A stretch of DNA of 47,801 nt from assembly GCA_964631625.1 (NCBI GenBank), contig CAZVZP010000001.1:1-47801 (forward strand), read 5' to 3'. Within the stretch, counting starts at the first letter, position 1; every line of letters starts with the position of its first letter. Below the pieces are notes generated by a model. It was not told the origin of the DNA, made no database searches, and saw nothing but the letters and a program-made list of their open reading frames with translations. A program made the position numbers and the translations under genes. Shown here in pieces: positions 3,721 to 46,396 of this stretch. The DNA comes from an uncultured Hyphomicrobiales bacterium (GTDB taxonomy: Bacteria; Pseudomonadota; Alphaproteobacteria; UBA828; JAPUJA01).

Positions 3721-3730
3721 CGCCCGCGCT

Positions 3731-31001: not shown

Positions 31002-31017
31002 TGGCACGGCGCTTGCA
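31002..31017 (+). promoter_or_regulatory. Sigma-54 (-24/-12) promoter of the TPR-GT1 / GT8 / TPR-GT2 operon
   Basis: TGGCACggcgcTTGCA, a full match to TGGCAC-N5-TTGCA. Lies 19-40 nt upstream of the candidate starts. Confidence 0.7.
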
Positions 31018-31035: not shown

Positions 31036-33318
31036 GTGCGACTTGCGCGGGGCACCATGAGAGGCGGTCTTGCCGTCAATCCGAACGCACGCGGGCTTGC
31101 CACGCCCGATGCCGCCCCGCCTGCGACCGCATCCCGTCCCGAGGGAACCCCGGCCGAAGCCGCCTTTCGCGGCGTGCTCGAGCGCCATCCGGGCCAGCCG
31201 GACGTGCTCCATCTCTTAGGCTTGGCCGCCCTCGGGCAGGGCCGCGTCGCCGACGCGCTCGAGCTCATCGGACGGGCGCGCGAGCGCGCCTCGGACGTCG
31301 CCGAATATCACACCAGCTTTGGCCTCGCCCTGCTCGACGCCGGTCGGACCGCGGAGGCTGCGCAGGCGTTCGCCCAGGCCGCGGCACTCGATCGGGACTC
31401 GATCCGCCCTCTCGTCAACCTGGCCCACGCTCAGGAACGCCTGGGCGAGTTGCCGCAGGCGCTCGCGACCTACGCGCTCGCGCTCGAACGCGCGCCAAAC
31501 GACGCGGGGCTCCATGCCGGCATCGGCGGCGCACTTGCCCGTCTCGAGCGCACGAACGAGGCCTTGCGCCACCTCGCGCGGGCCGTCGAGCTCGACGGCA
31601 ATCTGCTCGCCGCTTGGCTCGTGCTCGGCGCCCTGCACGAGCAGCGCGAGGAGGCGCAAGCGGCCCACGACGCCTATCAGCGCGCCCGAGAGCTCGCGCG
31701 GCACGATCCCTCAATCCTCTGCGCGCTCGGCCGCGTCTGCGCCGCGCTGGGGCGCCTCGAGGAGGCAGCGGAGTGGTACGGCCGCGCGCTCATGCTCGAT
31801 CCGGGCCTCCCCGACGCGCGGCTCGGGCTTGCCGCCGTGCTTCATGCGGGCGCGCCCGAGAGCGCCGCCCGCGCTCGCCTGAGCTCAGCCCTCAACGCGC
31901 CGCCCGCGGGCGATCCGGCCGGCAGGACCGGAGAGCGCAAGGACCTCCGGGCGGATGCCGGACTCGAGGCCGAACGCAGCCTGCACCGTTTGCTTCTGCT
32001 CGAGCCCGACAACCTCGAGCTTGGTCTTGAGCTCGGACGGCACCTGCGCCGGCGAGGGCAAGCGGACGACGCCCTCGCGCATTATCAGTCGCTCATCGCC
32101 CGACACCCGCACTCGGCGCACGCCGAGAGCGCGCTCGCCCTCGTGCTCATCGGCGCGAACCGGCGCGAGGAAGCGCTCGCCCATATCGACCACGCCATGG
32201 CGCTCGAGCCGAAGTCGCCCGTAGCCCTCAACAACCTCGGCAGCTTGCGCCAAGAGCTTGGCCAGTTCGACGCGGCGCTCGAGGCCTACGAGCAGGCGCT
32301 CGCGCTGGCGCCCGAGTACGCCGAGGCCCACTACAACCGGGCACAGCTCCTGCTCCGCCTCGGCCGCTACGCCGAGGGTTGGCGCGAATACGACTGGCGC
32401 CTCGGGCTGCCCGCGAGCCGAGCGCTGCCGCGTCTGCCCGCCGATTGGGATGCGGTACGACCGGTCGGCCGCCGGGTCGCGGTCGTCGGCGAACAGGGTC
32501 CGGGCGACGTCGTGCTCTTCGCCCACTGCTTGTCCGATCTGATCGCGGATGCGCACGAGGTGTCGCTCCATGTGGAGCGCCGGCTCGTGCCCCTGTTCCG
32601 CCGTTCGTTTCCGGGGCTCGAGGTGAGCGATCGCAGGCCGCGGCGTGCCGCGGGTCAAGAGGGCGCGACGCTCGTTCTGCCCATCGGCTCGCTGCCGCGC
32701 ATCTACCGCAACAGCGAGGCCGACTTCGCCCGCGCACGCGCGCGCTACCTGACGCCCGATCCCGAACGAGTCGAGCATTGGCGCGCACGCCTCGCGGCCC
32801 TTGGCCCAGGCCCCAAGATCGGCCTGTCCTGGCGCGGCGGCAAGAGCCCCACGGAGCGGCGTCTGCGCGACACCGCGCTGGCCGACTGGGACCCGCTCTT
32901 TGCGGTGAGCGAGGCCCGCTTTGTCAATCTCCAGTACGACGCACGCCGAGGCGAGATCGAACAGGCCCGGCGCCGGCGCAACGCGAAGCTCGACACCTGG
33001 GACGACCTCGAGCTCATGCACGACCTCGACGAGCTCGTTGCCCTGATCGAGGCGCTCGACCTCGTGGTCTCCATGGCAAACACCACCGTCCACTTCGCCG
33101 GGGCGCTGAATAAGCCCGTGTGGATCCTCGTGCCGGCCGCTCCAAGTTGGCGTTGGCAGCACCAACGCGCGGATTCGCCGTGGTACCGCAGCGCGCGCCT
33201 CCTTCGTCAAACCATGGGCGAGCCGTGGTCCCGCTTCGCCGAACGGGTCGCGGCCGAGCTCGCCCGGCACCTGCACAACGTCTCGCAACGGTCCGATCCG
33301 AGGAGCGCCGTGTCATGA
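31036..33318 (+). CDS. TPR repeat + C-terminal GT9-like (heptosyltransferase-fold) glycosyltransferase, paralog 1 of 5
   Basis: 760 aa from GTG 31036; the alternative ATG 31057 gives 753 aa. N-terminal TPRs. C-terminal motifs are GEQGPGDVVLF, IGLSWRGG, LDLVVSMANTTVHFAGALNKPVWILVPAAPSWRW and SPWYRS. Confidence 0.8.
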   Translation: MRLARGTMRGGLAVNPNARGLATPDAAPPATASRPEGTPAEAAFRGVLERHPGQPDVLHLLGLAALGQGRVADALELIGRARERASDVAEYHTSFGLALLDAGRTAEAAQAFAQAAALDRDSIRPLVNLAHAQERLGELPQALATYALALERAPNDAGLHAGIGGALARLERTNEALRHLARAVELDGNLLAAWLVLGALHEQREEAQAAHDAYQRARELARHDPSILCALGRVCAALGRLEEAAEWYGRALMLDPGLPDARLGLAAVLHAGAPESAARARLSSALNAPPAGDPAGRTGERKDLRADAGLEAERSLHRLLLLEPDNLELGLELGRHLRRRGQADDALAHYQSLIARHPHSAHAESALALVLIGANRREEALAHIDHAMALEPKSPVALNNLGSLRQELGQFDAALEAYEQALALAPEYAEAHYNRAQLLLRLGRYAEGWREYDWRLGLPASRALPRLPADWDAVRPVGRRVAVVGEQGPGDVVLFAHCLSDLIADAHEVSLHVERRLVPLFRRSFPGLEVSDRRPRRAAGQEGATLVLPIGSLPRIYRNSEADFARARARYLTPDPERVEHWRARLAALGPGPKIGLSWRGGKSPTERRLRDTALADWDPLFAVSEARFVNLQYDARRGEIEQARRRRNAKLDTWDDLELMHDLDELVALIEALDLVVSMANTTVHFAGALNKPVWILVPAAPSWRWQHQRADSPWYRSARLLRQTMGEPWSRFAERVAAELARHLHNVSQRSDPRSAVS

Positions 33319-34040
33319 ATCCGAGAGAAATCCCGATCTTCGTCGGCTGGGACAGCCGGGAGGACATCGCCTACCAGGTGTGCCGCTATTCGGTTCTGCG
33401 GCGCGCCTCTGAGCCCCTCAAGGTGTTCGCGCTGCGTCAAAAGGCGTTGCGCTACCAGCGGCTCTATTGGCGCGACGCGGACCCCCTGGCCTCGACCGAG
33501 TTCACGTACACCCGCTTCCTCGTGCCGGCACTCGCCGATTACCGGGGGTGGGCGCTCTTCTGCGACTGCGACTTCCTGTTCCTCGCGGATGCGGTGGAAC
33601 TCCTCTCGCTTGCCGATTCGCGCTACGCCATGATGTGCGTGCATCACGATCACCGCCCGACCGAGCGCACGAAGATGGACGGCTGCGCGCAAACGATCTA
33701 TCCACGCAAGAACTGGTCGAGCCTGATGCTGATGAATTGCGCCCACCCGGCCAACCGCGCGTTGACGCCCCAGGTTGTGAACGGGCAGAGCGGCCAGTTC
33801 CTGCATCGCTTGCAGTGGCTCGACGATGCGCTCATCGGCCAATTGCCGGTGAGCTGGAACTGGCTCGAGGGCTGGTACCCCAAGCCCGACAGCGGAACGC
33901 CCAAGGCCGTGCACTTCACCCGCGGTGGCCCGTGGTTCTCAAACTGGCAGCACGTCGACTACGGCGAGTTGTGGCTCGCGGAGCGAGCCGAGTTCGAGCG
34001 CCAGATGGAGCGGCCGAGCGGGCGCATCGCCGCGGCTTGA
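33315..34040 (+). CDS. GT8-like (GT-A fold, DxD) glycosyltransferase
   Basis: 241 aa from ATG 33315, with an ATGA overlap onto the paralog 1 stop. Contains FTYTRFLVPAL...FCDCDFLF (DxD), HHDH and NWSSLMLMNC. Confidence 0.6.
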   Translation: MNPREIPIFVGWDSREDIAYQVCRYSVLRRASEPLKVFALRQKALRYQRLYWRDADPLASTEFTYTRFLVPALADYRGWALFCDCDFLFLADAVELLSLADSRYAMMCVHHDHRPTERTKMDGCAQTIYPRKNWSSLMLMNCAHPANRALTPQVVNGQSGQFLHRLQWLDDALIGQLPVSWNWLEGWYPKPDSGTPKAVHFTRGGPWFSNWQHVDYGELWLAERAEFERQMERPSGRIAAA

Positions 34041-34054
34041 ACCGCAAACCGTCC

Positions 34055-36109
34055 ATGGTCACGCCCGAGCAGACCTTCGGCCAGGCGCTCGGCCATCATC
34101 GGGCCGGCCGGCTCGAGACCGCCGAACGGCTCTATCGCGAGGTACTCGCTGCGGTGCCCGGGCATTGCGATGCCCTGGTCAACTTGGGCGCCATCGCGGC
34201 GGCCCGGAGCCGCTTCGACGAGGCGGCGGCGCTGTCGCAGCGCGCGCTTGAAAACAACCCGCAGTGCCTCAACGCGCTCGTCAACTTGGCCGCGGCACGC
34301 TACGCCCAGGGCGACGCCGATGGCGCGGCCGAGGCCCTCGAGCGTGCCGTCGGACTGGCGCCGCAAGATTTGCCGCTGCTGCTCAATCTGGCCGGTTTGC
34401 GACGCGCACAAGGGCGCGCGGCGGAGGCGCGTGCGCTGCTCGAGCGCGCCCACGAGCGCGCACCGAGCGATCCGGAGCCGCTTGTTCAACTGGCACTCGA
34501 GGCGCTCGCCGGAGGCCGCTTGGAAGAGGCCGAGCGCCATCTGCGTGCGGCCCTCGCGCGCGAGCCGCGCCACGCCGAGGCCCAGTTCAATCTGGCCCGG
34601 CTGCGCGAGCAGGCGGGCGATGCGCAAGGCGCGGTCGAGCATTACCGCCGGGCCCTTCAGGCAAACACCCGACATCCGGGCGCGCTCAACAACTTCGGCC
34701 TCTTGCTCGACAGGCTGGGCAAGAAGGCCGAGGCCGCAATGCTGCTGCGCCGTGCTGTTGCCGCCGAACCCGCCCGGGCGGAATTTCATTACAATCTGGG
34801 CAGCGTGCTGGCGGATCAGGATGAGTTCGACGGCGCCACGATTGCGCTCGGCGAGGCACTGCGCCTCAATCCGGGCTACCGCGAGGCGCGGCTCCGCCTC
34901 GCGAATCTCTACACCGCAACCGGCGCCTACGAGGCGGCCGAGCGCTGCTACCGCTCCGTGCTTGCGCAGGAACCAAGCCACGCGGTCGCCCACGCCAACC
35001 TGGGTGTGCTTCACGAGTACCGGGGCGCCATGGCCGAGGCCGAGGCCGAGTTCCGGCAAGCCATCGCCCTCGATCCCGGTTACGCCGCGGCGCACTTCAA
35101 TCTCGCGTTGCTCCTGTTGCGCGAAGAGCGTTTCGCCGAAGGCTGGCGCGAGTACGAGTGGCGCTGGCAGGTGATCGACAGCCTGCCCCCGCGGGCGCCC
35201 CTGCCGCTGTGGGACGGCAGCCCGCTCGATGGCCGCGGCCTCCTCGTGCTGGGCGAGCAGGGCCCCGGGGACATGGTGATGTTCGCGCAATGCTTGCCCG
35301 AGGTGCTCGAACAGACAAATCGGGTCGTGCTCACCGCCGAGCCCCGTCTCGTGGACCTGCTGGCGCGCTCCTTTCCGCGGGTCGAGATAAGACCAGCCGA
35401 TTATCGGGAAGTGCCGGACGTTCCCGAAGGCTGCGAGGTCGCTCTTGCGATCGGCAGCTTGCTCGGCCTCTTTCGCCGTCGGCCGACGGACTTCGCGCAC
35501 ACGCACATCCCCTACCTCGTGCCCGATCCAGAAGCCGTCGCGCGCTGGCGCGAACGCTTCGCCGCCCTCGGCCCGGGCCCTAAGATCGGTCTCTCCTGGG
35601 CCGGCGGCGCGAGCCCCAGCGAGCGGCGTTTCCGCGGCCTCGATAGTGCCGACCTCGAGCCGCTGCTCGAGCTTCCCGAATGCCGTTTCGTCAATCTGCA
35701 ATACGGTAAACGCCGAGGCGATGGCACGGTGCTGGCCGAGCGGACCGGAATCCCGATTGCCGACTGGGCCGACGCGGATCCGGTGAGCCGCTTCGATGAC
35801 CACGTGGCGCAAATCGCTTGCCTCGATGCCATCGTCTCGGTCGCGAACACGGTCATCCACGCGGCGGGCGCGCTTGGCACGCCCGCGCTGGTGCTCACTC
35901 CCGCGACGCCAAGCTGGCGCTGGGGGCTCAGGCGAAGCCACTGTCTCTGGTATCCGGCCGTCGAACTCTTGCGCCAAGGCGCGGGCGAGCCCTGGCGGGC
36001 GGTCGCCGAGCGCGCCGCCGCGCGGCTCGCGCATCGGCTCGCACGCCGGGAGGGCGACGAGGCGGCCGAGGCGCGCGCACCGATGGGACCGGCAGATTTT
36101 GCCGCTTAA
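34055..36109 (+). CDS. TPR repeat + GT9-like glycosyltransferase, paralog 2 of 5
   Basis: 684 aa from ATG 34055 (MVTPEQTFGQALGHHRAGRLETAERLY). About 9 TPR units. C-terminal motifs are GEQGPGDMVMF, IGLSWAGG, LDAIVSVANTVIHAAGALGTPALVLTPATPSWRW and CLWYPA. Confidence 0.8.
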   Translation: MVTPEQTFGQALGHHRAGRLETAERLYREVLAAVPGHCDALVNLGAIAAARSRFDEAAALSQRALENNPQCLNALVNLAAARYAQGDADGAAEALERAVGLAPQDLPLLLNLAGLRRAQGRAAEARALLERAHERAPSDPEPLVQLALEALAGGRLEEAERHLRAALAREPRHAEAQFNLARLREQAGDAQGAVEHYRRALQANTRHPGALNNFGLLLDRLGKKAEAAMLLRRAVAAEPARAEFHYNLGSVLADQDEFDGATIALGEALRLNPGYREARLRLANLYTATGAYEAAERCYRSVLAQEPSHAVAHANLGVLHEYRGAMAEAEAEFRQAIALDPGYAAAHFNLALLLLREERFAEGWREYEWRWQVIDSLPPRAPLPLWDGSPLDGRGLLVLGEQGPGDMVMFAQCLPEVLEQTNRVVLTAEPRLVDLLARSFPRVEIRPADYREVPDVPEGCEVALAIGSLLGLFRRRPTDFAHTHIPYLVPDPEAVARWRERFAALGPGPKIGLSWAGGASPSERRFRGLDSADLEPLLELPECRFVNLQYGKRRGDGTVLAERTGIPIADWADADPVSRFDDHVAQIACLDAIVSVANTVIHAAGALGTPALVLTPATPSWRWGLRRSHCLWYPAVELLRQGAGEPWRAVAERAAARLAHRLARREGDEAAEARAPMGPADFAA

Positions 36110-36138
36110 TTGGCGAAACTTTCCGGCAACTTTTGCCG
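36090..36138. promoter_or_regulatory. Two CGGCA-N5-TGCCG dyads upstream of the flagellin sigma-54 promoter (candidate enhancer)
   Basis: CGGCAgatttTGCCG (36090-36104) and CGGCAactttTGCCG (36124-36138). Their centres are 34 bp apart, and about 116 and 82 bp upstream of the -24 GG. Confidence 0.45.
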
Positions 36139-36211
36139 ACCCGTTTACGCCGGAAAAAGACAACCCGTTGAAAATGCGCGCTCGAAGGCCTTGCGAGGCA
36201 AGTGCGGATCG

Positions 36212-36227
36212 TGGCACAGCGTTTGCA
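36212..36227 (+). promoter_or_regulatory. Sigma-54 (-24/-12) promoter of the flagellin gene
   Basis: TGGCACagcgtTTGCA, a full consensus match, 82 nt upstream of the fliC ATG. Confidence 0.75.
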
Positions 36228-36240
36228 GCATTAAGGGCCA

Positions 36241-36258
36241 GGACGGCGGAGTCCGTCC
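36241..36258 (+). promoter_or_regulatory. 5'-leader hairpin presenting GGA in the loop (candidate CsrA binding site 1)
   Basis: GGACGG-cGGAgt-CCGTCC, at the predicted 5' end of the fliC mRNA. A second GGA lies within the SD AGGAG at 36295-36299. Confidence 0.4.
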
Positions 36259-36308
36259 CATCGACGGCAAGTAGCCGGAACCAACCATCCATGTAGGAGA
36301 TCATTCCA

Positions 36309-37475
36309 ATGGCTCTTAACATTATTTCGAACTACGCTGCGAACGTTGCGCAGCGCAACTTGGTTCGGACCGACGCCGCGGCCACCGCTTCGCTCGCGAA
36401 GCTGTCCTCGGGCACTCGCGTGGTGAGCGCCAAGGACGACGCCGCATCGCTCGCCATCGGCAAGCGTCTCGAGGCCGAAATCGGTGCCCTGCGCCAAGCG
36501 CAGGTCAACGCCGGTCAGGCCGCGTCGATGCTGCAAATCGCCGACGGCGCGCTGGCGACCCAGGCCGACATCATCGTCCGGATGAAGGTCCTGGCCGTAC
36601 AGTCCTCCTCGAGCCAGCTGTCCAGTACCGAGCGTACACTCCTTAACAACGAGTTTACCTCGCTGCGGGATGAGTTGAACCGTATCGCCCAAGACACAGA
36701 CTTTAACGGCATAAAGTTGCTGAGCGGCTCGACCACGTTCTCGGCGAGCTCGGTCGGCACCGACATCGCCGTGGTGGACGGCTTCGAGCAGTTCATCTTC
36801 GGCTCGGATCCGGGCGGCACGTTCATCTCGGCGGGCGATACCATCGCCATCACCTACAACACCGGCACGGACATCTTGACCGTGACGAACGAGGTGACGG
36901 GTCAGGCGGAGACGGCGAGCGTGAGCGCGGCGCCTTCGGCGGGTTCGTTCTCGGATGTGGTGTTCGGCGATTTCGGCCTCACCGTCCGCTTGAACTCGCT
37001 GTTTGCGACCGGCACCGCGGTGACCGGCGCCAACGCAAAGTTCATCGTGGCCGGCGGCACGTCGAACACGCTGACGCTCTCGTTCCGTGTTGGCACGGGC
37101 ATCAACTCGGAGGATGTCATCAGCTTCTCGCTAGGCAAGTCCACCGCCGTGGCCCTTGCAGCGGGCCTTGACACCGACGACATCCTGACGGTGGCAGCGG
37201 CCGAGACCGCAATCACCGACACGACGACGGCAATCGACGAGGCTAACTCCATCCGAGCCGACGTGGGTGCGGCCCAGAACCGGGTGACCTTCGCGGCCTA
37301 CAACCTCGGGTCGAGCATCGAGAACGCGGAAGCGGCTCGAAGCAACCTGTTGGACCTCGACATCGCGGCGGAGACGACGAACTTCGTCTCCAAGCAGATC
37401 CTGTTCCAGGCTGGTGTGGCCATGCTCGCGCAGGCGCAGCAGCTGCCGCAGGCCCTGCTCAAACTCCTCGGGTAA
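36309..37475 (+). CDS. fliC: Flagellin
   Basis: 388 aa. The conserved N-terminus is LAKLSSGTRVVSAKDDAASLAIGKRLEAEI. The C-terminus is RADVGAAQNRVTFAAYNLGSSIENAEAARSNLLDLDIAAETTNFVSKQILFQAGVAMLAQAQQLPQ. The variable middle is Ser/Thr/Ala/Gly-rich. Confidence 0.95.
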   Translation: MALNIISNYAANVAQRNLVRTDAAATASLAKLSSGTRVVSAKDDAASLAIGKRLEAEIGALRQAQVNAGQAASMLQIADGALATQADIIVRMKVLAVQSSSSQLSSTERTLLNNEFTSLRDELNRIAQDTDFNGIKLLSGSTTFSASSVGTDIAVVDGFEQFIFGSDPGGTFISAGDTIAITYNTGTDILTVTNEVTGQAETASVSAAPSAGSFSDVVFGDFGLTVRLNSLFATGTAVTGANAKFIVAGGTSNTLTLSFRVGTGINSEDVISFSLGKSTAVALAAGLDTDDILTVAAAETAITDTTTAIDEANSIRADVGAAQNRVTFAAYNLGSSIENAEAARSNLLDLDIAAETTNFVSKQILFQAGVAMLAQAQQLPQALLKLLG

Positions 37476-37491
37476 ACCCGAGCGGAAGCGT

Positions 37492-37516
37492 GGCGGAGGG
37501 GAAAATCCCCTCCGCC
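37492..37516 (+). terminator. Hairpin after fliC (terminator/attenuator candidate)
   Basis: GGCGGAGGGG-aaaat-CCCCTCCGCC, a 10-bp stem 17 nt after the stop. No T-tract. Confidence 0.5.
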
Positions 37517-37568
37517 GCCTTCCTCAACCCGAGAGCATATCGCGGAGTAAGGCTTCGGTAGAACGGCC

Positions 37569-37865
37569 ATGCGGATACCGGATGCGATTCCCCTCCAGGG
37601 GCAGCCCGCCGCCATCCGCCATGCCCGTACCGAGGCGGTGAATGCGACCCCGCGCGTCGCCAAGGACAAACGCGACGATCCCTATCGCCGTCGCGACTAC
37701 GACGACGGAGCGGTGGACATAACGCTCGTTCACGCCCAGCCGGAGCCCGACGCGGGCCAGCCCGCGGCCCCGGCGACGGCACCGGAAAACGAGCCTTCGG
37801 GCGAGGAAGGACATACGGAAACCGACCGGCCGAGGGGCCAGCATCTCGTCGACCAGTCGGCATAA
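37569..37865 (+). CDS. Hypothetical acidic, Pro-rich 98-aa protein at the flaG position
   Basis: The ORF sits between fliC and fliD with high GC3 throughout. Only the C-terminal GQHLVDQSA weakly recalls FlaG tails. The SD is weak. Confidence 0.35.
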   Translation: MRIPDAIPLQGQPAAIRHARTEAVNATPRVAKDKRDDPYRRRDYDDGAVDITLVHAQPEPDAGQPAAPATAPENEPSGEEGHTETDRPRGQHLVDQSA

Positions 37866-37914
37866 GAAAGTAGCGAGACAAAGCAACTCCTTTACGGACT
37901 TCGAGCAGACGATC

Positions 37915-40900
37915 ATGGAATCAGTGTTCAACCTGGGCTCGCTCACCGTCGATCCGACGACGGGCCGCGCGAGCTTCTCGGGTCTCGGCACCGGCATCGA
38001 CATTCAAGGCGCGATCACGGCGATCCTGCAGGCCAAGCGGCTGCCGGCGGTCACGCTCGAGACCCGCATCACGGCAAATCAGGAAAAGATCGTAGCCCTC
38101 CAGGCGCTGCGCACGGCCTTGAATGCGGTCAAGAGCTCGCTCAACCGCTTGCGCGGCGCGGTCAGCGTCGGCAACACGAACAACGTGTTCCACGCCAAGA
38201 CCGTGTTCGCCAGCACCTCGCGCCTCGACGGGTTGAGCCCCTCCGCGGCCGGCAATCTCGTCGGGCTCACCGTGTCGAACGCGGCGGCCAAGGGCGTGCA
38301 CGAGATCGAAATCCGCCGCGTCGCCACGGCGCACAAGATCGCGAGCTCGAGCTTCGCGAGCGCGAGCACCGCGCTCGGCCTCTCCGGTTCCTTCCAGATC
38401 GGCAGCGGCAGCACGGCCGCGACGATCACGGTCTCGGCCACCGATACGCTCCTCGACATCCGCGACCGAATCAACAACGCCAACACCGGAACCAACGCCA
38501 CGGGCGTCTCGGCAAGCATGGTCACGGTGAGCAGCACCCAGAACATGCTCGTGGTCTCGAGCGATGCGACCGGCGAGACCCTTCAGATCACGGATTCGGG
38601 CAGCGTGCTCTCGGGCCTCGGCCTGTCGGCCACAGGCGGTGCGGGCGGCTACCGCAATGGGCTCGCAAGCAGCAAGATCGAGAGCACCGATGGCTTCGAC
38701 GCGGTTCTCTTCGACGGCACCGAGGCCGACAACGCCTTCCGCCTGAGCTACGTCGCGGCGACCCGCACGCTGACGCTGACCCGGGGCGACGGCACCTCCG
38801 AGTCCGTGACGCTCTCCGCCGATACGATCGCGGCGGGCGAGACGGAAGAGGCGAGCTTCGACGACTTCGGCGTCACGGTCATGCTCAATTCGAGCTTCAA
38901 CAAGGCCGCCGACATTACGGTGAGCGCCGATACGGTATCGATCACGGGCGGAACGGGCGCGATCGATGCCGGCACGGTGACCATCGCCGACAGCGCCGGA
39001 AACATTTCCGGGATCACGAGCTCGACGCTGACCTTCGGCAACCTCGCCACGCCCGCGGCGATCAGCGTCTCGGTCGGCAGCTTTACCGGCACCTTCAACG
39101 GCACGAGCACCGGCACCAAGACGGTTACGCTGACAAACGGGAGCAATTCGCTGACCGTGCAGTTCAACGTGACCACGGTTTTCGACGGCACCGAGACCGC
39201 CGGCTCGATCACGCTCAACGAGCTCGAGAATGCGCTGGGCGCCACCGGCGACCCGTTCGCAAGCGTCCTGCAAAGGCCGCAGAGCGCGCGCATCACCGCC
39301 GACGGCCTGACCGACGGCACCCATCACGAGTCGCTCGTCGTGGCCGATTCCTCCGCCCAACTCGGCACCTACCTGAGCGATCTGACCTTCCCCGGCAGCT
39401 TCACGATCAACGGAACGAGCTCGCGCACGATCAACTTCGCCTCGACCGACACGCTCGAGACCCTGCGCGACGCCATCAACGTCGAGACCGTGAACACCGG
39501 GGTGACGGCCACCATCGTCGAGGATGGCGGCGGCTACCGCCTCGACTTCGACTCGGCGAGCGCGTTCACCCTCACCGATACGACCGGCTTGCTCGGCGAG
39601 CTCGGTGTCAACAACGCGCTCGTCATCGAGCGCTCGAGCAACACCGTGACCGATCTCTTCGCGGGCGTCACGCTTTCGCTCTTCGCGGCCGAGCCGCGCA
39701 CGACGATCAAGCTCGAAATCGAGCAGGACCTGAGCGGGGTCAAGACCGAGATCACGGGGTTTGCCACCGCCTACAACTCGGCACGTTCGATCATCAACCA
39801 GCACCAGCTGACCGATTTCACGACCGGCGTCAAGAGCGAGGATGCCGACGTGCTGTTCGGCAACCGCGTGCTCGCCGACGCCCAGCGCCGGCTCGCCAAC
39901 GCCGTGAGCGAGGATGTGTCGGGCGTCGATGCCGCCTTCGCGGTGCTCCGCCAGATCGGCATCGAGCTCGTCGACAACACGCTGATCACCGATCCTCTGC
40001 TCAAGGACACGCTCGAGATCGACGAGACCGCGCTCGATCAGGTGCTGCTGTCCAATCTCGCCGACGTGCGCCGCCTCTTCGCCTTCGAGTTCACGAGCTC
40101 CGATCCCCGTGTGGTTTTGAGCCGCTTCACGGCGAACACCCAATACTCGGCCTCGGGCTATGTGCTCAACATCGGCACCTTCGGCCAGCGCAACAAGGAT
40201 TCGGCGAGCGTTGCGAGTGCAAGCGCCATGCTCAACGATGCGGTCAATAGTTTTGGCGCCACCACCTCGGGCAGCTTCACCGTCAACGGCGCGTCCGTTG
40301 CCTACAACGTCGCCACGGACACCCTCGATACGCTGATCAGCAACATGAATGCGGCGTTCGTTACGGCCGGCAACGACGTCACCGCGAGGAAACGCACCGA
40401 CGAGGACGGCAACTTCTTCATCGATCTTCAATCAAACACCCAGACGGCGCTCACGATCGGCGGGGATACGGGCGACCTCGTAGCACTCCTCAACTTCCAG
40501 CCCGACCTCGACATGCTCGACAGCGCGAACATCGGCGGAGCCGCGAACGGCAGCGACGACGGCAGCGCCACGGTCTCGGGGCGCGCGATCACGGCAACCG
40601 ATCAGACCTCGGCCGACGGCCTCGGGGTGATCTACACGGGCACGGGCTCGGCCAGCGCAATTCAGATCGACTTCACCGTGGGGGTCGCCGCCGACCTGTT
40701 CGATGCGCTGGAGCAGTTCGTCGATACGATCGACGGCTCGATCCAAGGGGAGATCGCGGCTCTCGAAGCCCAGAACGAGGTATCCCAAGACCGGGTCGAG
40801 CAGATCGATTTCCGACTCGATCTCTTGCAGGCGTCTCTGCTCGCGCGCTTCGTCGCGATGGAGACGGCGCTCACCCGCATGAAACAGCTTCTAGAGGGCC

Positions 40901-40941
40901 TCAAGGTCCAGTTCGAGGCGCTCAGCAATGCCAACAAGTAA
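37915..40941 (+). CDS. fliD: Flagellar filament cap protein FliD (HAP2), unusually long (1008 aa)
   Basis: The N-terminus is SGLGTGIDIQGAITAILQAKRLPAVTLETRITANQEKIVALQAL. The FliD_C-like region is LFAGVTLSLF...ITGFATAYNSARSII, followed by the terminal coiled coil IDFRLDLLQASLLARFVAMETALTRMKQ. There are three GSFxI/VNG...TDTL...IN modules. Confidence 0.9.
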   Translation: MESVFNLGSLTVDPTTGRASFSGLGTGIDIQGAITAILQAKRLPAVTLETRITANQEKIVALQALRTALNAVKSSLNRLRGAVSVGNTNNVFHAKTVFASTSRLDGLSPSAAGNLVGLTVSNAAAKGVHEIEIRRVATAHKIASSSFASASTALGLSGSFQIGSGSTAATITVSATDTLLDIRDRINNANTGTNATGVSASMVTVSSTQNMLVVSSDATGETLQITDSGSVLSGLGLSATGGAGGYRNGLASSKIESTDGFDAVLFDGTEADNAFRLSYVAATRTLTLTRGDGTSESVTLSADTIAAGETEEASFDDFGVTVMLNSSFNKAADITVSADTVSITGGTGAIDAGTVTIADSAGNISGITSSTLTFGNLATPAAISVSVGSFTGTFNGTSTGTKTVTLTNGSNSLTVQFNVTTVFDGTETAGSITLNELENALGATGDPFASVLQRPQSARITADGLTDGTHHESLVVADSSAQLGTYLSDLTFPGSFTINGTSSRTINFASTDTLETLRDAINVETVNTGVTATIVEDGGGYRLDFDSASAFTLTDTTGLLGELGVNNALVIERSSNTVTDLFAGVTLSLFAAEPRTTIKLEIEQDLSGVKTEITGFATAYNSARSIINQHQLTDFTTGVKSEDADVLFGNRVLADAQRRLANAVSEDVSGVDAAFAVLRQIGIELVDNTLITDPLLKDTLEIDETALDQVLLSNLADVRRLFAFEFTSSDPRVVLSRFTANTQYSASGYVLNIGTFGQRNKDSASVASASAMLNDAVNSFGATTSGSFTVNGASVAYNVATDTLDTLISNMNAAFVTAGNDVTARKRTDEDGNFFIDLQSNTQTALTIGGDTGDLVALLNFQPDLDMLDSANIGGAANGSDDGSATVSGRAITATDQTSADGLGVIYTGTGSASAIQIDFTVGVAADLFDALEQFVDTIDGSIQGEIAALEAQNEVSQDRVEQIDFRLDLLQASLLARFVAMETALTRMKQLLEGLKVQFEALSNANK

Positions 40942-41521
40942 CGGCGACGCCCCCAAACAGCCGCGCGTGCTCACGCCGGAACAGCGCGAGCGCCGGCGGA
41001 AGTTCTACGAGTACTGCAAGGCCAAACGAGTCGACAAGACCAGCGCGCCAGCGCGCCCGCTGTGGGAGAACCGCTACTGGTCCCAGGAGATTCTTTCGGC
41101 CTCGCCGCTCGAGTGCCTGGTCAAGCTCTACGACGGCGCCATCCAGTTCCTGCGCCGCGCGGAAAGCGCGACCAAGGGGGGCGATATCGCCGCGCGCTAC
41201 GAGGCGAGTCAGCGGGCCGCGCGCATCATCGAACATCTGGCCGACACCCTCGACCTGCAGCAGGGCGGCGAGGTGGCCGGGAAGCTCGACGCCATCTACA
41301 AGACGGCCCTGCGTCGCCTCATCGAGGTGAACACCCGCAACGACGCTCAGGCCGCGCGCGACGTGATCGGCCTCTTGGAGCCGCTCGTCCGCTCCTGGCG
41401 CGAGCTCGGCGCCCGGCAAGCGGGTGAGGCCGCGCGGCGTGCCGGCCGTCCTCTATTCCCCACCGAGGAGACGCCGCAGGGCAACGGCCGTCCCCGGCAA
41501 GGGGTTTCCGCTACCGTCTGA
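40928..41521 (+). CDS. fliS: Flagellin-specific export chaperone FliS with ~45-aa basic N-terminal extension
   Basis: 197 aa. The FliS core is YWSQEILSASPLECLVKLYDGAIQFLRRAE...AARIIEHLADTLDLQQGGEVAGKLDAIYKTALRRLIEVN...LLEPLVRSWREL. The start overlaps the fliD 3' end by 14 nt. Confidence 0.8.
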   Translation: MPTSNGDAPKQPRVLTPEQRERRRKFYEYCKAKRVDKTSAPARPLWENRYWSQEILSASPLECLVKLYDGAIQFLRRAESATKGGDIAARYEASQRAARIIEHLADTLDLQQGGEVAGKLDAIYKTALRRLIEVNTRNDAQAARDVIGLLEPLVRSWRELGARQAGEAARRAGRPLFPTEETPQGNGRPRQGVSATV

Positions 41522-41579
41522 GGTCATGCGTTGAAACAATCCGCGCTCGAAGTCCTCAACCCCTGACCTCACGGCGGGC

Positions 41580-41615
41580 GCGCCGGACCGGGCAACCGGT
41601 CCGGCGCTTTCTTTT
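41580..41615 (+). terminator. Rho-independent terminator after fliS
   Basis: GCGCCGGACCGG-gcaa-CCGGTCCGGCGC, a 12-bp perfect stem followed by TTTCTTTT. Confidence 0.85.
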
Positions 41616-41625
41616 GTCGGCACGC

Positions 41626-43074
41626 TCAGCCTTCGAAGCGGACGAGCCGCGCGAGATCGGCGGCCACGCGCCGGAACACTCCGCTCCACTCCCCGGGCCG
41701 CTCCTGCCGGTAGAGGCGTGCCGTTGGATACCACGGGCTCTCGGTGCCCTGCGCCATCCAGCGCCAGTCGGGGGGGATCGGCACAAGAGTCCAGACCGGC
41801 TTGCCGAGCGCGCCCGCGAGATGAACCACGGCGCTGTCCACCGCAACGACGAGATCGAGCGCGGCGATCAGCGCGGCGTAGCGATCGAGGTCGCTCAAGG
41901 GATCGACGCCGTCGATGGGTTCGGGGACGAGACCGCCCGCGGCGGCGGACTCGGCACGCTCGTGCGCCCTATCCCCGTATTGCAAATCGACGAACCGAAC
42001 CCCCGTGATGCGCGCAAGGGGCTGCCAATCGGCGAGCGTGGTGGAGCGGCGCCGCCGTTCCATGCCTTCGCGCCCCCCCCGCCAGGCGATGCCGACGGCT
42101 AATCTCCCGGCCGCGGCGGCGCCGAGGCGCGCGCGAAACTCTTGCGTTGCGGCGTCCTCCGCCCGCAGATAGCCGGGCGTGCGCGGAAAGGCATCGCGCG
42201 AGCCGCGGAAGAGGCGCGGCAGGCTGCCGGCGGGAAGCCAGCATTCGGCGGGCGGCGGCGTCTCGCTCCCGGCACCCTCGCGGCGCGTACCCGAGACCTC
42301 GGCAGCCGGGAAGGAGCGGGCGAAGAGCGGCGCGAGCCTCGGCTCGCACACCACCACCGGCACGGCCCCGGCCGCGCTCAAGTCGGGCAGACAGGACGCG
42401 AACATGATCTCATCGCCCACCCCCTGCTCGCCGTAAATCAGAACACGCCGGCCCTCGGGCGCGCCGCCATCCCACAACGGCAAGGGCAGAGTCGGAAAGC
42501 GCACCTTGCCCGCGGCGATGCGCCAGGCGTAAGACGCCCAACCCCGCGCGAGGTCGCCCTCGAGCAGATACGCGAGCGCCCGGTTCCATTCCGCATGGGG
42601 CCAACGCGGCTTGAGCGCCAGCGCCCGCGCATAGCAGGCTATCGCCTCCTCCAAGCGCGCTTGCGCCCGGAGCGCGTTGCCGAGATTGCACCAGGCCGCC
42701 GCATGGCCGGGGTCGAGAGCCAGCGCCGCCCGATGCTCGGCCTCGGCCTGCGCAAAGTCGCCGAGCGCCTGCAGCGCTCCGCCCAGATTGTCGTGCGCCG
42801 AGATGGAATCGGGCTTGAGCCTAAGAGCCGCCCGCAAGGTGGCCGCCGCCTCGGCAAATTGCCCCGATTGGAGAAGCAAGGCGCCGAGATTGGCGGCAAT
42901 CGCCGGATCCTGCGGCGCGGATGCGTAGGCCTTGCGAAGCCACGCCTCGGCTTCGTCCAGGCGGCCTTGCGCGATCGCCGCAAGCCCCTGCCCGTGCCAG
43001 CTGCGCGCAGCCTCGATTCCGCCGGCTGCCGTCTCCTGCGGGCGCCCCCGAACCCCCTTGAAGGAATGCGTCAT
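41626..43074 (-). CDS. TPR repeat + GT9-like glycosyltransferase, paralog 3 of 5 (shortest TPR arm)
   Basis: 482 aa from ATG 43074, with an ATGA overlap onto the paralog 4 stop; the track fuses it into 41626..44499. Motifs are YGEQGVGDEIMF, IAWRGG, LDLVVAVDSAVVHLAGALGKPVWTLVPIPPDWRW and SPWYPT. Confidence 0.8.
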   Translation of the reverse strand: MTHSFKGVRGRPQETAAGGIEAARSWHGQGLAAIAQGRLDEAEAWLRKAYASAPQDPAIAANLGALLLQSGQFAEAAATLRAALRLKPDSISAHDNLGGALQALGDFAQAEAEHRAALALDPGHAAAWCNLGNALRAQARLEEAIACYARALALKPRWPHAEWNRALAYLLEGDLARGWASYAWRIAAGKVRFPTLPLPLWDGGAPEGRRVLIYGEQGVGDEIMFASCLPDLSAAGAVPVVVCEPRLAPLFARSFPAAEVSGTRREGAGSETPPPAECWLPAGSLPRLFRGSRDAFPRTPGYLRAEDAATQEFRARLGAAAAGRLAVGIAWRGGREGMERRRRSTTLADWQPLARITGVRFVDLQYGDRAHERAESAAAGGLVPEPIDGVDPLSDLDRYAALIAALDLVVAVDSAVVHLAGALGKPVWTLVPIPPDWRWMAQGTESPWYPTARLYRQERPGEWSGVFRRVAADLARLVRFEG

Positions 43075-44630
43075 CGAGCGCGGCCATCCGCAAGAGATCG
43101 CCGCAACGCGGCGAGCCGCTCCGCAGCGCGCTCCACCGCCGGGCTCCAATCCTCGCCTTGTCGCTGCCGGATCAACTCGACGCTCGGGTACCACAAACAG
43201 CGATCGCCCGTGCACTGCCAGCGCCAGCTCGGCACCGTCGGCACCAAGGTGAGCGTCGTCTTGCCGAGCGCGCCCGCGAGATGCACCGTGGTGTTGGCGA
43301 CCGAGACGACGAGATCGAGCGCGTCGATCAGGGCGCACAGCCCGTCGAGGTCCTGGTTTGGATCGTTTTCCGGAAAATCGTGGATCGCGATTCCCGTCGC
43401 GCTGCGCAGGGCCTCGATCTCGCCGCGGCAGTCGTCGTACTGGAGCGTCACGAAGTGGAGGCCCGGTGAGCGCAGGATCGGCTGCCAAGACTCGAGCGTC
43501 ATCCGCCGCAGATGCCGCTCCAGAGGCGACGCGCCGCCTCGCCACGAAATCCCGACCTTGAACCCCGGCCCGAGATCGACGAGGCGGGCGCGCCAAGATT
43601 CGACCGCGCGCGCATCGGGCACGAGATAGCGCGTGGGCGAGCGTTGGAAGCTCGCCGCGGTGGGACGGAAGTAGCGCGGCAGCGAGCCGATCGCGACCGC
43701 GTAGTCGACCGCGGGCTCCGGCCACCAGGCACCGGTGTCGGGCACACGGTCGGCCGTCACCTCGGCTTTGGCAAACGAGCGCGCAAACAGCGGCGCGATC
43801 CTGCCCCGGCATTGCACGAACACCCGGCCCGCGTGTGCCAGGAGCTCGGGCAGGCACGAGGCGAACATCACGATGTCGCCCGGGCCCTGCTCGCCGTAAA
43901 CCAGGATGCGCTTGCCCGACAGCGGCTCGCCCCGCCACTCGGGCGCGTTGAAGCGGCGCCACGCCGTGCGCTGCGCCTTCTCCTTCCAGCGGCCCTCGTA
44001 GGCCGGCCAGCCGCGGGCGAAATCGCCCGCAAGCAACAGCGTGAGCGCGCGGGTAAGCGGCGTTTCCGGGCACCCGGGATTGAGCGCGAGCGCGCGCTCG
44101 TAGCACGCGAGCGCATCCTCGAGACGGTCTTGTGCGCGGCACAGGTTGCCGAGGTTGGTCAGGATGGCCGGGTCGTCGGGCTCGAGCGCCTGGGCCCGCC
44201 TGAGCGCGGCCTCGGCATCCGCGAACGAGCCGAGCTCGTGGAGTGCGCTGCCGAGGTTGATCAGGACATCGACGGCGTCGGGATCGAAGCGCAAGGCACT
44301 GCGATAAGCCTCGACCGCGGCCCCGCGTTCGTCCGCTTCGCGCAGGAGATTGCCGAGATTGAAGTGGGCGAGCGCGTAATCGGGCGCGAGCGCAATCGCT
44401 TGGCGATAGAGCGCCAATGCGCAGTCGCGCTCGCCCCGCGCCTGCGCGAGCGCCGCGCGATTGAGCATGAGCCGCGGGTTGTCGGGTGCGAGCGCGCAAG
44501 CCGCGCTCATAGCGGCTTCCGCTTGCTCGAACCGGCGCTCGCGCAGCGCCGCCAGGCCTAGCGCGTTGAGCTGCTCGACGCGGGCCGCGTCGCTTGCGCT
44601 GAGCGAACTCGAACGGGCGGAGCGCGACAT
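43071..44630 (-). CDS. TPR repeat + GT9-like glycosyltransferase, paralog 4 of 5
   Basis: 519 aa from ATG 44630. Motifs are YGEQGPGDIVMF, ISWRGG, LDLVVSVANTTVHLAGALGKTTLTLVPTVPSWRW and CLWYPS. Confidence 0.8.
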   Translation of the reverse strand: MSRSARSSSLSASDAARVEQLNALGLAALRERRFEQAEAAMSAACALAPDNPRLMLNRAALAQARGERDCALALYRQAIALAPDYALAHFNLGNLLREADERGAAVEAYRSALRFDPDAVDVLINLGSALHELGSFADAEAALRRAQALEPDDPAILTNLGNLCRAQDRLEDALACYERALALNPGCPETPLTRALTLLLAGDFARGWPAYEGRWKEKAQRTAWRRFNAPEWRGEPLSGKRILVYGEQGPGDIVMFASCLPELLAHAGRVFVQCRGRIAPLFARSFAKAEVTADRVPDTGAWWPEPAVDYAVAIGSLPRYFRPTAASFQRSPTRYLVPDARAVESWRARLVDLGPGFKVGISWRGGASPLERHLRRMTLESWQPILRSPGLHFVTLQYDDCRGEIEALRSATGIAIHDFPENDPNQDLDGLCALIDALDLVVSVANTTVHLAGALGKTTLTLVPTVPSWRWQCTGDRCLWYPSVELIRQRQGEDWSPAVERAAERLAALRRSLADGRAR

Positions 44631-44652
44631 CAAGCCGGCCCGGGTGTGGTGC

Positions 44653-46338
44653 CTAGGCGGCGAGGCAGCGGGCGAGCCTTACGGCCACGCGCGCCAGCAC
44701 GGCGGCCCAGGGCTCGCCCGCGCTCTGGCGGATCAGCTCGACGCTCGGGTACCACGGGCTGTCGCTCCGTTCGACCATCCAGCGCCAGCTCGGCACCGCG
44801 GGCACGAGCGCCCACGTGGGCTTGCCGAGCGCGCCGGCGAAGTGGATGGTCGTGTTGGCGACCGAGACGACGAGATCGAGAGCATCGATCTGGGCCGCGA
44901 AGTCATCGAGGTTCTCGACCGCGCCCGGCCAGTCGGCAACGCGCACGCCGTGGGACTCGGCGAGCCGATCGAGCTCCTCGCGGCGCGGGCCGTATTGCAA
45001 ATTGACGAACACGATTCCCGGGGTGCGCAACAGCACGAGCCAATCCTCGAGTGCGGTGCCGCGCAGGTGGCGCTCGACCACGGTGGCGCCGCCCCGCCAC
45101 GAGACCCCGACCTTGAGACCCGGTCCCAAGGCCTCGAGCCGGCCGCGCCAGCGCACCACTCGCCGCGCGTCGGTTGCGAGGTAACGGCGCACGCCCGGAA
45201 ATGCCGCCTCCGAGCGGCGGAAGAACAGCGAAAGGCTGCCGATGGGCAGGACCGAATCGGTGTCCTCCGGCGCCGGCGCCGGCCGGCCGTCGGCCAGCCG
45301 CTCGCTGACCACGGTGATCCGGGGGAAGGAGCGCGCGAGCAGCGGCACGAGAGTGGGCGGGCACTGGACCGCGATGCGCGGCACCGCCGCCAGCGTCTCG
45401 GGCAGGCACGAGGCGAACATCACGACGTCGCCGGGCCCTTGCTCGCCGTAGAGCAGCAGACTCCCCGCGCCGAGCGGCACGCCCCGCCAGAGTGGCCGGC
45501 CGAACGCGCGCCGCAGCGAGGCCGGCTCCGACACCTCGAAGCGGGCTTCGTAGTCGGCCCAGCCCTGGGCGAAGTCGCCGAGGCCGAGCCGCACGACGCC
45601 GCGATTCAAGCGCAGCTCGGGCGAGGCGGGCGCGAGCGCCAGGCCCGCTTCGTAGGCCGCGAGCGCCTCATCGAAGCGGCCTTGAGCTCGAAGGCTGTTG
45701 CCGAGATTGCCGTGAATCTCGGACACCTCGGGAGAGAACGTCAGGGCGGCGCGAAACCTGCGCTCGGCCTCGACAAACGCGGCCGCGTCGTAAAGCGCGA
45801 GGCCCAGTGCATTCTGCGCCGCGGCGAGATCGGGTGCGCGGTCGGCCGCCCGCTCAAGCACCTCGATCGCTTCCTCGGTCTGCCCGTGGCGGCGCAAGGC
45901 GATGCCGAGATTGGTCAGAGTCTTCGCGTCGCTGGGATTGGCCGAAAGCGCGGCCCGCAGGCAATCGATCGCCTCCTCATAACGTGCGAGCCGGCACAGG
46001 GCCTCGCCTCGCCGCGATCGGTAGGAAACGTGATCGGGCGCGAGTGCGATCGCCCGGCTCCAATGGAGTTCGGCGGCCTCGGCATCGCCCAGCGCGAGTG
46101 CCAGCTCGGCCAAGTTGCCGTGCACGGGATGCAAAGCGGGCGCCAGCTTCGCCGCCTCTTCGAGGCAGCGGCGGCCTTCGCTCGCGTCGCCACGGCCCGC
46201 CAGAAGCGCAGCGAGATTGACGAGCACGGGCACCGGGCGCGCCTTGCCGGTTAGCAGCGAACGGTACAGGCGCTCCGCTTCCTCGAGCCGACCGGCTTGG
46301 TGTAGCTGGGCGGCACGATCAAACACCTCTCTCGACAT
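44653..46338 (-). CDS. TPR repeat + GT9-like glycosyltransferase, paralog 5 of 5
   Basis: 561 aa from ATG 46338, with GGAG 6 nt upstream; the track ORF starts at GTG 46359. Motifs are YGEQGPGDVVMF, VSWRGG, LDLVVSVANTTIHFAGALGKPTWALVPAVPSWRW and SPWYPS. Confidence 0.8.
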   Translation of the reverse strand: MSREVFDRAAQLHQAGRLEEAERLYRSLLTGKARPVPVLVNLAALLAGRGDASEGRRCLEEAAKLAPALHPVHGNLAELALALGDAEAAELHWSRAIALAPDHVSYRSRRGEALCRLARYEEAIDCLRAALSANPSDAKTLTNLGIALRRHGQTEEAIEVLERAADRAPDLAAAQNALGLALYDAAAFVEAERRFRAALTFSPEVSEIHGNLGNSLRAQGRFDEALAAYEAGLALAPASPELRLNRGVVRLGLGDFAQGWADYEARFEVSEPASLRRAFGRPLWRGVPLGAGSLLLYGEQGPGDVVMFASCLPETLAAVPRIAVQCPPTLVPLLARSFPRITVVSERLADGRPAPAPEDTDSVLPIGSLSLFFRRSEAAFPGVRRYLATDARRVVRWRGRLEALGPGLKVGVSWRGGATVVERHLRGTALEDWLVLLRTPGIVFVNLQYGPRREELDRLAESHGVRVADWPGAVENLDDFAAQIDALDLVVSVANTTIHFAGALGKPTWALVPAVPSWRWMVERSDSPWYPSVELIRQSAGEPWAAVLARVAVRLARCLAA

Positions 46339-46373: not shown

Positions 46374-46396
46374 ATTAGGAAACCCGTGGTTAACGA
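46374..46396 (+). promoter_or_regulatory. Conserved 23-nt motif ATTAGGAAACCCGTGGTTAACGA (copy 2) in the TPR-GT5/fliK divergent region
   Basis: 20 of 23 positions are identical to the minus-strand reading of 19301-19323. Lies 36 bp from the paralog 5 ATG and about 150 bp upstream of the fliK sigma-54 promoter. Confidence 0.4.

Follow-up and report, generated by a model that had tools for sequence, protein, structure and literature searches.

A flagellar gene cluster of an uncultured Hyphomicrobiales bacterium encodes five diverged homologs of the Caulobacter flagellin glycosyltransferase FlmG. We analyzed a stretch of 47,801 nucleotides (nt) from this organism (contig CAZVZP010000001.1 of assembly GCA_964631625.1, hereafter the window) in which the genes for flagellin (fliC), filament cap (fliD) and flagellin chaperone (fliS) are bracketed by five paralogous genes. 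Their products carry N-terminal tetratricopeptide repeats (TPR) and a C-terminal glycosyltransferase (GT) domain of the GT-B type. The five genes are members of the FlmG family and in our assessment likely encode cytoplasmic protein O-glycosyltransferases that act on a flagellar substrate before its export. An initial annotation of this DNA had proposed a role in flagellin glycosylation by analogy with FlmG. That role is the best-supported reading, resting on FlmG homology, adjacency to flagellin genes in other genomes and a common promoter type, and the analogy proves to be true homology that extends over both the TPR array and the C-domain. To our knowledge, no other enzyme of the FlmG class has been studied. 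The kind of enzyme described here is known; what is new is the conserved five-copy set, a GT8-like partner gene and how large the family is. The five genes are:

Paralog 1, 31036-33318, plus strand: FlmG-family TPR + GT-B protein, 760 amino acids (aa) from a GTG start
Paralog 2, 34055-36109, plus strand: FlmG-family TPR + GT-B protein, 684 aa, about 11 TPRs
Paralog 3, 41626-43074, minus strand: FlmG-family TPR + GT-B protein, 482 aa, about 5 TPRs
Paralog 4, 43071-44630, minus strand: FlmG-family TPR + GT-B protein, 519 aa, about 6 TPRs
Paralog 5, 44653-46338, minus strand: FlmG-family TPR + GT-B protein, 561 aa, about 7 TPRs; the minus-strand trio begins with this gene

All five coordinates and lengths in the initial annotation were correct when checked against the open reading frames (ORFs), and Pfam matches of the neighboring genes agree with its statement that the five genes bracket fliC, fliD and fliS. 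N-terminal TPR matches are strong in every paralog. Paralog 1 possesses about 11 repeats arranged in two blocks that are separated by a linker of about 50 aa. Best local alignments between paralogs give 38-47% identity, while the C-terminal 300 or so residues share 45-49% identity and 68 invariant columns. The C-domain alignment contains all motifs listed earlier, namely GEQGxGD..F, (S/A)W(R/A)GG, LDxxVxxxxxxxH.AGAL, P(S/D)WRW and WY. The reported ATGA coupling of two minus-strand copies was likewise read in the sequence, as an overlap of the paralog 4 stop with the paralog 3 start. The true start of paralog 1 is probably the ATG at 31057, giving a protein of 753 aa, because JGI's annotation of an identical contig places the start there and because the GTG at 31036 lies too close to a sigma-54-type promoter (31002-31017). 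The ATG of paralog 2 at 34055 is backed by the same set of gene calls; a longer ORF from 33467 was rejected as it would overlap another gene. The base composition of the window is 64-72% G+C.

Caulobacter FlmG aligns with the window paralogs over the TPR array and the entire C-domain. FlmG was reached by using a FljK sequence as bait (93-95% identical to database Caulobacter FljK) and then taking the adjoining gene. The candidate is a 596-aa TPR protein of C. vibrioides (CP023315.3) encoded beside an flmH-like acetyltransferase gene, flbT, flaF and three flagellin genes; we take flbT, flaF and flagellin genes to be part of the flmG neighborhood in Caulobacter. It was accepted as FlmG because its length and its acetyltransferase neighbor agree with the published locus, in which flmG is CCNA_01524 and the N-acetyltransferase FlmH is CCNA_01523 (PMC7591256). 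An alignment of the family against this protein with hhalign gave a probability of 100% and an E-value of 2e-76 over 526 columns. In BLASTP comparisons FlmG shares 30-36% identity with the five paralogs over 436-515 aa (E 4e-47 to 4e-61), with the following individual values:

FlmG and paralog 1: 32% over 513 aa, E 5e-56
FlmG and paralog 2: 30% over 515 aa, E 3e-47
FlmG and paralog 3: 34% over 441 aa, E 2e-56
FlmG and paralog 4: 36% over 436 aa, E 9e-60
FlmG and paralog 5: 34% over 488 aa, E 4e-61

Since the paralogs share only 38-47% with one another, FlmG is barely farther from them than they are from each other. In a rough neighbor-joining tree calculated without support values, FlmG falls among the flagellin-linked members of the family. 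FlmG also combines N-terminal TPRs with a compact GT-B domain (about 290 aa) and is encoded next to flagellin genes, and it has the motifs EQGxGD, RSFP, LQYGD, DLDxxAA...D(L/A)V and PWYP in common with the window proteins. Pfam recognizes only the TPRs of FlmG itself and no transferase domain. Experiments show that flagellin glycosylation requires FlmG and that FlmG suffices for it; its TPR domain binds flagellin while the GT-B domain sets donor preference (PMC7591256; bioRxiv 10.1101/2022.03.25.485807), and its donors are CMP-pseudaminic or CMP-legionaminic acid (PMC7591256). FlmG is known from C. crescentus/vibrioides and Brevundimonas subvibrioides as one copy, in contrast to the five copies and GT8-like partner found here. 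The nearest relatives of the source organism in our genome scan are unclassified metagenome-assembled genomes and lie outside the closest Caulobacter group.

Structure prediction indicates a GT9-like fold for the C-terminal domain. Modelling was needed to place the fold because a C-domain profile search of PDB sequences yielded only a 48-residue match, to WaaF. A full-length AlphaFold model of paralog 3 was built from 122 aligned relatives, comprising the five paralogs and 117 close database relatives. It has a predicted local distance difference test score (pLDDT) of 94.2 and a predicted template modelling score (pTM) of 0.91, and consists of ten TPR-type helices (residues 16-187) followed by two Rossmann-like halves. 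The best PDB matches of this full-length model in Foldseek are SPY (SPINDLY) and OGT, both TPR + GT-B enzymes. That ranking is driven by the TPR array, and the C-domain of paralog 4 was therefore modelled alone (pLDDT 94.6). Its first PDB matches are WaaF (1psw), a Veillonella GT9 protein (3tov), WaaC (2h1h, 2gt1 and 6dfe) and TibC (4rap), with E-values of 2e-7 to 9e-6 and TM scores of 0.5-0.6 against GT9 structures. No GT41 structure appears within the 50 best matches, and PF13844 (GT41) matches none of the five paralogs. We consequently rejected GT41 membership, as the full-length match is due to the shared TPR architecture and the C-domain alone retrieves no GT41 protein. An N-terminal TPR array and a C-terminal GT-B domain, which together characterize the FlmG class, are thus found in the window proteins by Pfam, by models with a pLDDT of 94 and by fold matches. 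It follows that the GT-B domain of FlmG, as a homolog of paralogs with a GT9-like model, should also be GT9-like in fold; the FlmG literature we searched does not state the GT family of this domain.

At the sequence level the relationship to GT9 is distant. PF01075 is passed by paralog 3 only, with 31.6-32.7 bits against a cut-off of 22, in a match that spans just 64 residues; the scores of paralogs 1, 4 and 5 are 11-15 bits, below the cut-off, and paralog 2 has no match. An hhalign comparison with WaaC, WaaF and WaaU gave 89.7% probability over 55 columns. The window paralogs can be aligned with WaaC and WaaF at a G-D motif near the N-terminus and at (D)xxxxH.AxAL.xP near the C-terminus, the latter corresponding to SVDTGLSH of WaaC. 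The proposal of a GT9-type GT-B enzyme in the initial annotation therefore holds for the fold, as the C-domain model finds GT9 structures first and the motifs align with WaaC and WaaF. As an assignment by sequence it stands in part: the C-terminal motif aligns, while only one of five paralogs reaches the family threshold. An accurate description of the modelled C-domain is a GT9-like fold that is not a clear member of the GT9 family. The comparison with GT9, GT41 and FlmG that the annotation had suggested thus ends in a GT9-like fold, no GT41 relationship and homology to FlmG.

The window proteins share some features with other known glycosyltransferases and differ from them in others. GT9 enzymes lack the TPRs that the paralogs possess. 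TibC, an autotransporter heptosyltransferase as is Aah, resembles the FlmG-type mechanism proposed here in being a cytoplasmic protein glycosyltransferase. GT41 enzymes (OGT, SPINDLY and Xanthomonas XcOGT) have in common with the paralogs a TPR superhelix leading into a GT-B domain, but their catalytic region is much larger than the paralog C-domain. Maf proteins of Campylobacter, Aeromonas and Shewanella have the same biological role as that proposed for the paralogs, and Shewanella Maf-1 uses its TPR domain for flagellin binding (bioRxiv 10.1101/2023.12.03.569772). However, Maf proteins combine a GT-A-type fold with C-terminal TPRs whereas the paralogs combine GT-B with N-terminal TPRs, and MAF_flag10 (DUF115) has no Pfam match in the five paralogs or the neighbors scanned. 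A literature search for characterized TPR + GT9 enzymes acting on flagellin or pilin returned only the FlmG papers and one flag-2 survey, a comparative study reporting that GT9 genes occur in enterobacterial flag-2 loci (PMC6993521). The top structural matches of the C-domain also include one subunit of the NDH-PSI supercomplex of chloroplasts (9grx_1, 7f9o_6, 7wff_a), which therefore shares the GT9-like fold.

The presumed catalytic motif is retained in all five paralogs while the donor-pocket region is variable. E-Q-G-x-G is invariant, and the Asp that follows is present in every paralog and in 121 of the 122 aligned sequences. This Asp of GEQGxGD aligns with the G-D motif that holds Asp13 of WaaC, which we take to be the catalytic base of that enzyme. 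Because the GEQGxGD Asp is present throughout, all five proteins are probably active. The column of WaaC Asp261 (SVDTG) is Asp in paralog 3 only and Ala in paralogs 1, 2, 4 and 5. Over the 122 sequences it holds Asp in 62, Cys in 21, Gln in 17, Ala in 16, Gly in 3 and Ser in 2, and FlmG has Ser. The residue is the same within orthologs and different between paralogs of one locus, and we infer that this column and its neighbors may tune the choice of donor sugar. Heptose should not be assumed from the likeness to GT9, since FlmG uses CMP-pseudaminic or CMP-legionaminic acid; the paralogs need not use such CMP-nonulosonic acids nor ADP-heptose.

Genes adjoining the paralogs encode candidate acceptors and two further putative modification enzymes. 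Besides fliC, fliD and fliS, the genes flgK, flgL and fliW lie upstream of the paralog/fliC region. The relevant neighbors are:

29670-30941, plus strand: fliB homolog (flagellin lysine-N-methylase), NCBIfam NF038110, 122 bits at a cut-off of 85
33315-34040, plus strand: GT8-like glycosyltransferase without TPR, 241 aa, DCD motif
36309-37475, plus strand: fliC flagellin, presumed main acceptor, 388 aa, Pfam Flagellin_N and Flagellin_C
37915-40941, plus strand: fliD filament cap, candidate second acceptor, 1008 aa, Pfam FliD_N, Flagellin_IN and FliD_C
40928-41521, plus strand: fliS flagellin chaperone, Pfam FliS

FliC contains 19.8% Ser+Thr overall and 24.5% in residues 146-300. The corresponding values for FliD are 22.7% overall and 27-31% in residues 101-500, compared to an average of 9.2% for the other proteins of the window. 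This bears out the earlier observation that the variable region of flagellin and FliD are Ser/Thr-rich. Flagellins are commonly rich in these residues, so the composition is weak evidence when taken alone. The window FliD is about twice the usual length, with a Ser/Thr-rich insert. Long FliD proteins of 800-1172 aa are also encoded at four related loci (L015, L035, L050 and L087), all of which have FlmG-like genes.

The fliB homolog, located between fliW and paralog 1, has a Cys-rich motif at its N-terminus, and the same position is likewise occupied at loci L001 and L080. Flagellin may thus be both lysine-methylated and glycosylated in this organism. The 33315-34040 gene is ATGA-coupled to paralog 1, its start codon sharing nucleotides with the paralog 1 stop, and it ends 14 nt before paralog 2. 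Its product has no Pfam, NCBIfam or PDB match, alone or as a profile. When 37 homologs were scanned singly, 32 matched Pfam GT8 weakly (best E 2e-5). The protein has more than 7,300 database matches; the 120 matches listed, apart from the window's own, show 63-83% identity. Some relatives are named 'glycosyltransferase' by JGI and NCBI, and some homologs are fused to DUF924. The gene is found by tblastn at 30 of the 78 genome loci holding the FlmG-like family that were selected for neighbor analysis (see below). We read the product as a distant GT8-like glycosyltransferase that lacks TPRs.

Sigma-54-type promoters precede paralog 1 and fliC. Both motifs match the consensus TGGCAC-N5-TTGCW perfectly and read TGGCAC-N5-TTGCA; they are listed here together with a terminator-like element:

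31002-31017, plus strand: sigma-54-type promoter before paralog 1, TGGCACGGCGCTTGCA
36212-36227, plus strand: sigma-54-type promoter before fliC, TGGCACAGCGTTTGCA
41580-41616, plus strand: G+C-rich hairpin and T-run resembling a terminator, identified by eye between the convergent fliS and paralog 3

With up to one mismatch allowed, five matches were found in comparison to 0.84 expected. Copies with one mismatch precede the paralog 1 ortholog at L001 and fliC at L087. A sigma-54 promoter of the kind found at fliC probably drives paralog 1, the GT8-like gene and paralog 2. The FlmG-like placement of the paralogs, with flagellin genes and with sigma-54 motifs at paralog 1 and fliC, is read from sequence. 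A further one-mismatch motif at 19457-19472 on the plus strand closely precedes the gene at 19496-20245, a hint that this sigma factor may also serve other flagellar operons of the window. For the minus-strand trio, a search for a sigma-54 or sigma-28 promoter gave only a poor sigma-54-like match by eye. A one-mismatch match at 46130 was rejected as the trio promoter as it is located inside paralog 5. The fliB homolog, the GT8-like gene and the sigma-54 promoters were not part of the initial annotation and are added here.

The gene arrangement is conserved at other loci. On L087, another metagenome contig, three family genes are followed by fliS, fliD (1009 aa), a 100-aa gene and fliC (388 aa), and then by a family gene, the GT8-like gene and a further family gene. 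Four of the five window paralogs have a positional one-to-one ortholog there with 59-65% identity (64% for paralog 2); the counterpart of paralog 1 is cut by the contig end and was left out of the comparison. The same layout is present at L015 and L050. As orthologs share 59-65% identity compared to 38-47% between paralogs of the same genome, the duplications must be old and the copies have been maintained. This suggests that the paralogs are probably not redundant. In a tree without support values, one alphaproteobacterial clade contains paralogs 1, 2, 4 and 5, and paralog 3 is placed elsewhere.

The wider family is large and associated with both flagellins and type IV pilins. Using a profile of the five C-domains, we searched 1.84 billion representatives clustered at 50% identity and obtained 42,911 clusters at E ≤ 1e-3 and 23,795 at E ≤ 1e-30. 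Many relatives are giant proteins of up to 3,140 aa with two to six C-domain copies (P0253-P0402). Relatives are encoded in 285 stretches among contigs of one genome per species. We used the 78 best loci for neighbor analysis (77 in gene-content counts), based on rough ORF calls and BLAST clustering and made with no random-locus control. These 78 represent Alpha-, Beta-, Gamma- and Deltaproteobacteria, Planctomycetes and Nitrospirae, and contain tandem arrays of up to six family genes. Flagellar genes are present at 20 of the 77 loci and type IV pilin genes at another 20, with no locus containing both. The nearest family gene usually adjoins the flagellin gene (median gap about 250 nt) or the pilin gene (130-250 nt). 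Recurrent neighbors include TPR-GT41-like genes (19 loci), TylF-like O-methyltransferases (10), TPR-FkbM methyltransferases (9) and DegT aminotransferases (8). A published description restricts FlmG to Caulobacterales (bioRxiv 10.1101/2023.12.03.569772), which, judging from these relatives, appears to hold for close orthologs only.

On the megaplasmid of Ralstonia solanacearum PSI07 (L086 3414-9882) and on a plasmid of Enterobacter sp. 638 (L085 6686-12899), an operon encodes a short-TPR relative, a TPR-sulfotransferase and an autotransporter. These operons resemble TibC with TibA and suggest glycosylation combined with sulfation of an adhesin. Azospirillum replicons of 0.02-2 Mb in a plasmid collection contain up to 19 matching places each for the full-length protein and up to 12 for the C-domain only. 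The one Azospirillum locus examined for flagellin adjacency had chemotaxis genes, not flagellin genes, as neighbors. Overall, the family resembles a general toolkit with which bacteria modify secreted proteins of surfaces and filaments. Three further observations concern individual loci. FlmG-like genes of Betaproteobacteria (Sphaerotilus, Methylibium, Methylococcaceae and others) are located directly upstream of type IV pilin genes; pilin-linked loci are L068, L070, L064, L052 and 16 others. At four loci FlmG-like genes adjoin a PglL-type O-oligosaccharyltransferase gene (Wzy_C + PglL_A). Azospirillum lipoferum encodes a 1278-aa protein with two C-domains (L079 11611-15447).

We envision the activity, acceptors, donors and division of labor of the window proteins as follows. 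By homology with FlmG, the TPR superhelix would bind unfolded or chaperone-free substrate, which would be flagellin and perhaps also FliD. The GT-B domain would then use a nucleotide-sugar donor to glycosylate Ser/Thr hydroxyls, and this transfer would precede export through the flagellar type III system. The five copies most likely differ in specificity for site, acceptor or sugar; different specificities are favored over redundancy because the copies are old, have been kept one-to-one and differ in TPR length and in the donor-pocket residue. As proposed in the initial annotation, five modules might build a multi-sugar or multi-site glycan. For the GT8-like enzyme, a role in adding to or lengthening the glycan is probable, and FliB would add methyl groups to lysines.

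Several observations weigh against flagellin glycosylation by five FlmG-like enzymes. The five enzymes are accompanied by a single visible flagellin gene. Nucleotide-sugar pathway genes, which the initial annotation had also reported as missing, were not found among the window ORFs scanned, a set that does not include every ORF; in the same set, unlike at the FlmG locus, there is no flmH-like acetyltransferase gene and there are no pseudaminic or legionaminic acid genes nearby, and heptose pathway genes were not found either. Four paralogs lack the equivalent of the GT9-conserved Asp261, which may mean altered or reduced activity. FlmG differs from the paralogs at donor-site motifs, with WKSL in place of WRGG, SSWTRL in place of PxWRW and Asn in place of a conserved His, and its donor should therefore not simply be assumed for them. 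Finally, about half of the loci analyzed contain neither flagellar nor pilin genes within 10 kb, so that the family is not exclusively flagellar.

The imbalance between one flagellin gene and five enzymes could be explained by a division of acceptors. It is possible, though short of probable, that the different TPR arrays select FliC, the long FliD and perhaps FlgK/FlgL or the hook, resulting in a flagellum glycosylated over its whole external part. The range of TPR arrays from about 5 to about 11 repeats is consistent with this, as are the Ser/Thr-rich extra region of FliD and the recurrence of long FliD proteins beside family members at the four loci named above. On the other hand, flagellins are the only known acceptors of FlmG (PMC7591256), and the long FliD may be a mere trait of the lineage.

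The division could instead concern steps of glycan assembly. One or two copies would initiate on Ser/Thr while the other copies and the GT8-like enzyme elongate to an oligosaccharide, the TPRs of elongating copies serving only to stay on the substrate. We consider this proposal rather doubtful. It agrees with a donor-pocket column that is specific to each paralog and conserved in its orthologs, with a TPR-less GT8-like gene that lies within the operon and recurs with the family, and with the recurrence of TylF-like O-methyltransferase and DegT aminotransferase genes at related loci. However, FlmG works without a partner transferase and adds nonulosonic acid residues singly (PMC7591256), and every copy carries a full TPR array that is not obviously needed for elongation.

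The loss of the Asp261 equivalent raises the alternative that some copies are catalytically weak or dead and bind flagellin as regulators or holdases, their transferase domain having degenerated. This would fit the Ala found in four of the five paralogs at a GT9-conserved position, which is presumably important for WaaC function. Other TPR transferases such as Listeria GmaR reportedly double as regulators (PMC9638930). Yet EQGxGD, the conserved His, Q-Y, R-W and W-Y are kept in all five paralogs, the Ala is conserved in orthologs within a column that varies family-wide between Asp, Cys, Gln, Ala and Gly, and active FlmG itself has Ser there, all of which makes inactive copies unlikely. It is highly improbable that the genes encode lipopolysaccharide (LPS) or polysaccharide heptosyltransferases located beside flagellar genes by chance: LPS heptosyltransferases are the closest solved folds and JGI labels the GT8-like gene 'lipopolysaccharide biosynthesis glycosyltransferase', but the clear FlmG homology and TPR fusion, the adjacency to flagellin genes conserved across phyla, the flagellar-type sigma-54 promoter and the only weak similarity of true GT9 sequences argue against it.

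Flagellar glycosylation by FlmG-family enzymes thus provides a well-supported functional annotation for the window and not a new mechanism. The locus adds clear FlmG homologs outside the closest Caulobacter group, present as five diverged copies together with a partner transferase and a lysine methylase. It also offers an annotation rule for thousands of genes now called 'tetratricopeptide repeat protein' and a natural set of paralogs for acceptor choice by TPR arrays and donor choice by a single pocket position, as well as candidate enzymes for targeted protein glycoengineering. A broader and clearly tentative idea is that the set implements a combinatorial 'glycan code', in which the TPR array would specify the protein or site (FliC, the giant FliD, junction proteins) and the donor pocket the sugar, with the GT8-like enzyme contributing, and in which FlmG would be one twig of a large, unrecognized family glycosylating secreted filament and surface proteins in the cytoplasm. 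Equally speculative is the extent of such a family, which might comprise the roughly 24,000 clusters found at E ≤ 1e-30 and serve flagellins, type IV pilins and autotransporters in Proteobacteria, Planctomycetes and Nitrospirae.

Elsewhere in the window, a Pro/Ala/Ser-rich ORF at about 46600-47801 on the plus strand runs off the window end and is probably fliK (hook-length control), judging by synteny with L087. The 300-aa ORF at 46390-47292 on the minus strand was rejected as a shadow of this gene. At 11726-15064 on the minus strand, adjoining fliP, a 1112-aa protein with weak TPR and AMIN-like matches is encoded. Outside the flagellar cluster, 2440-5520 on the minus strand holds about seven diverged tandem copies of a gene of about 147 aa belonging to the GFA family (PF04828, glutathione-dependent formaldehyde-activating enzyme-like), with a period of 430-490 nt and 60-85% nucleotide identity between copies.

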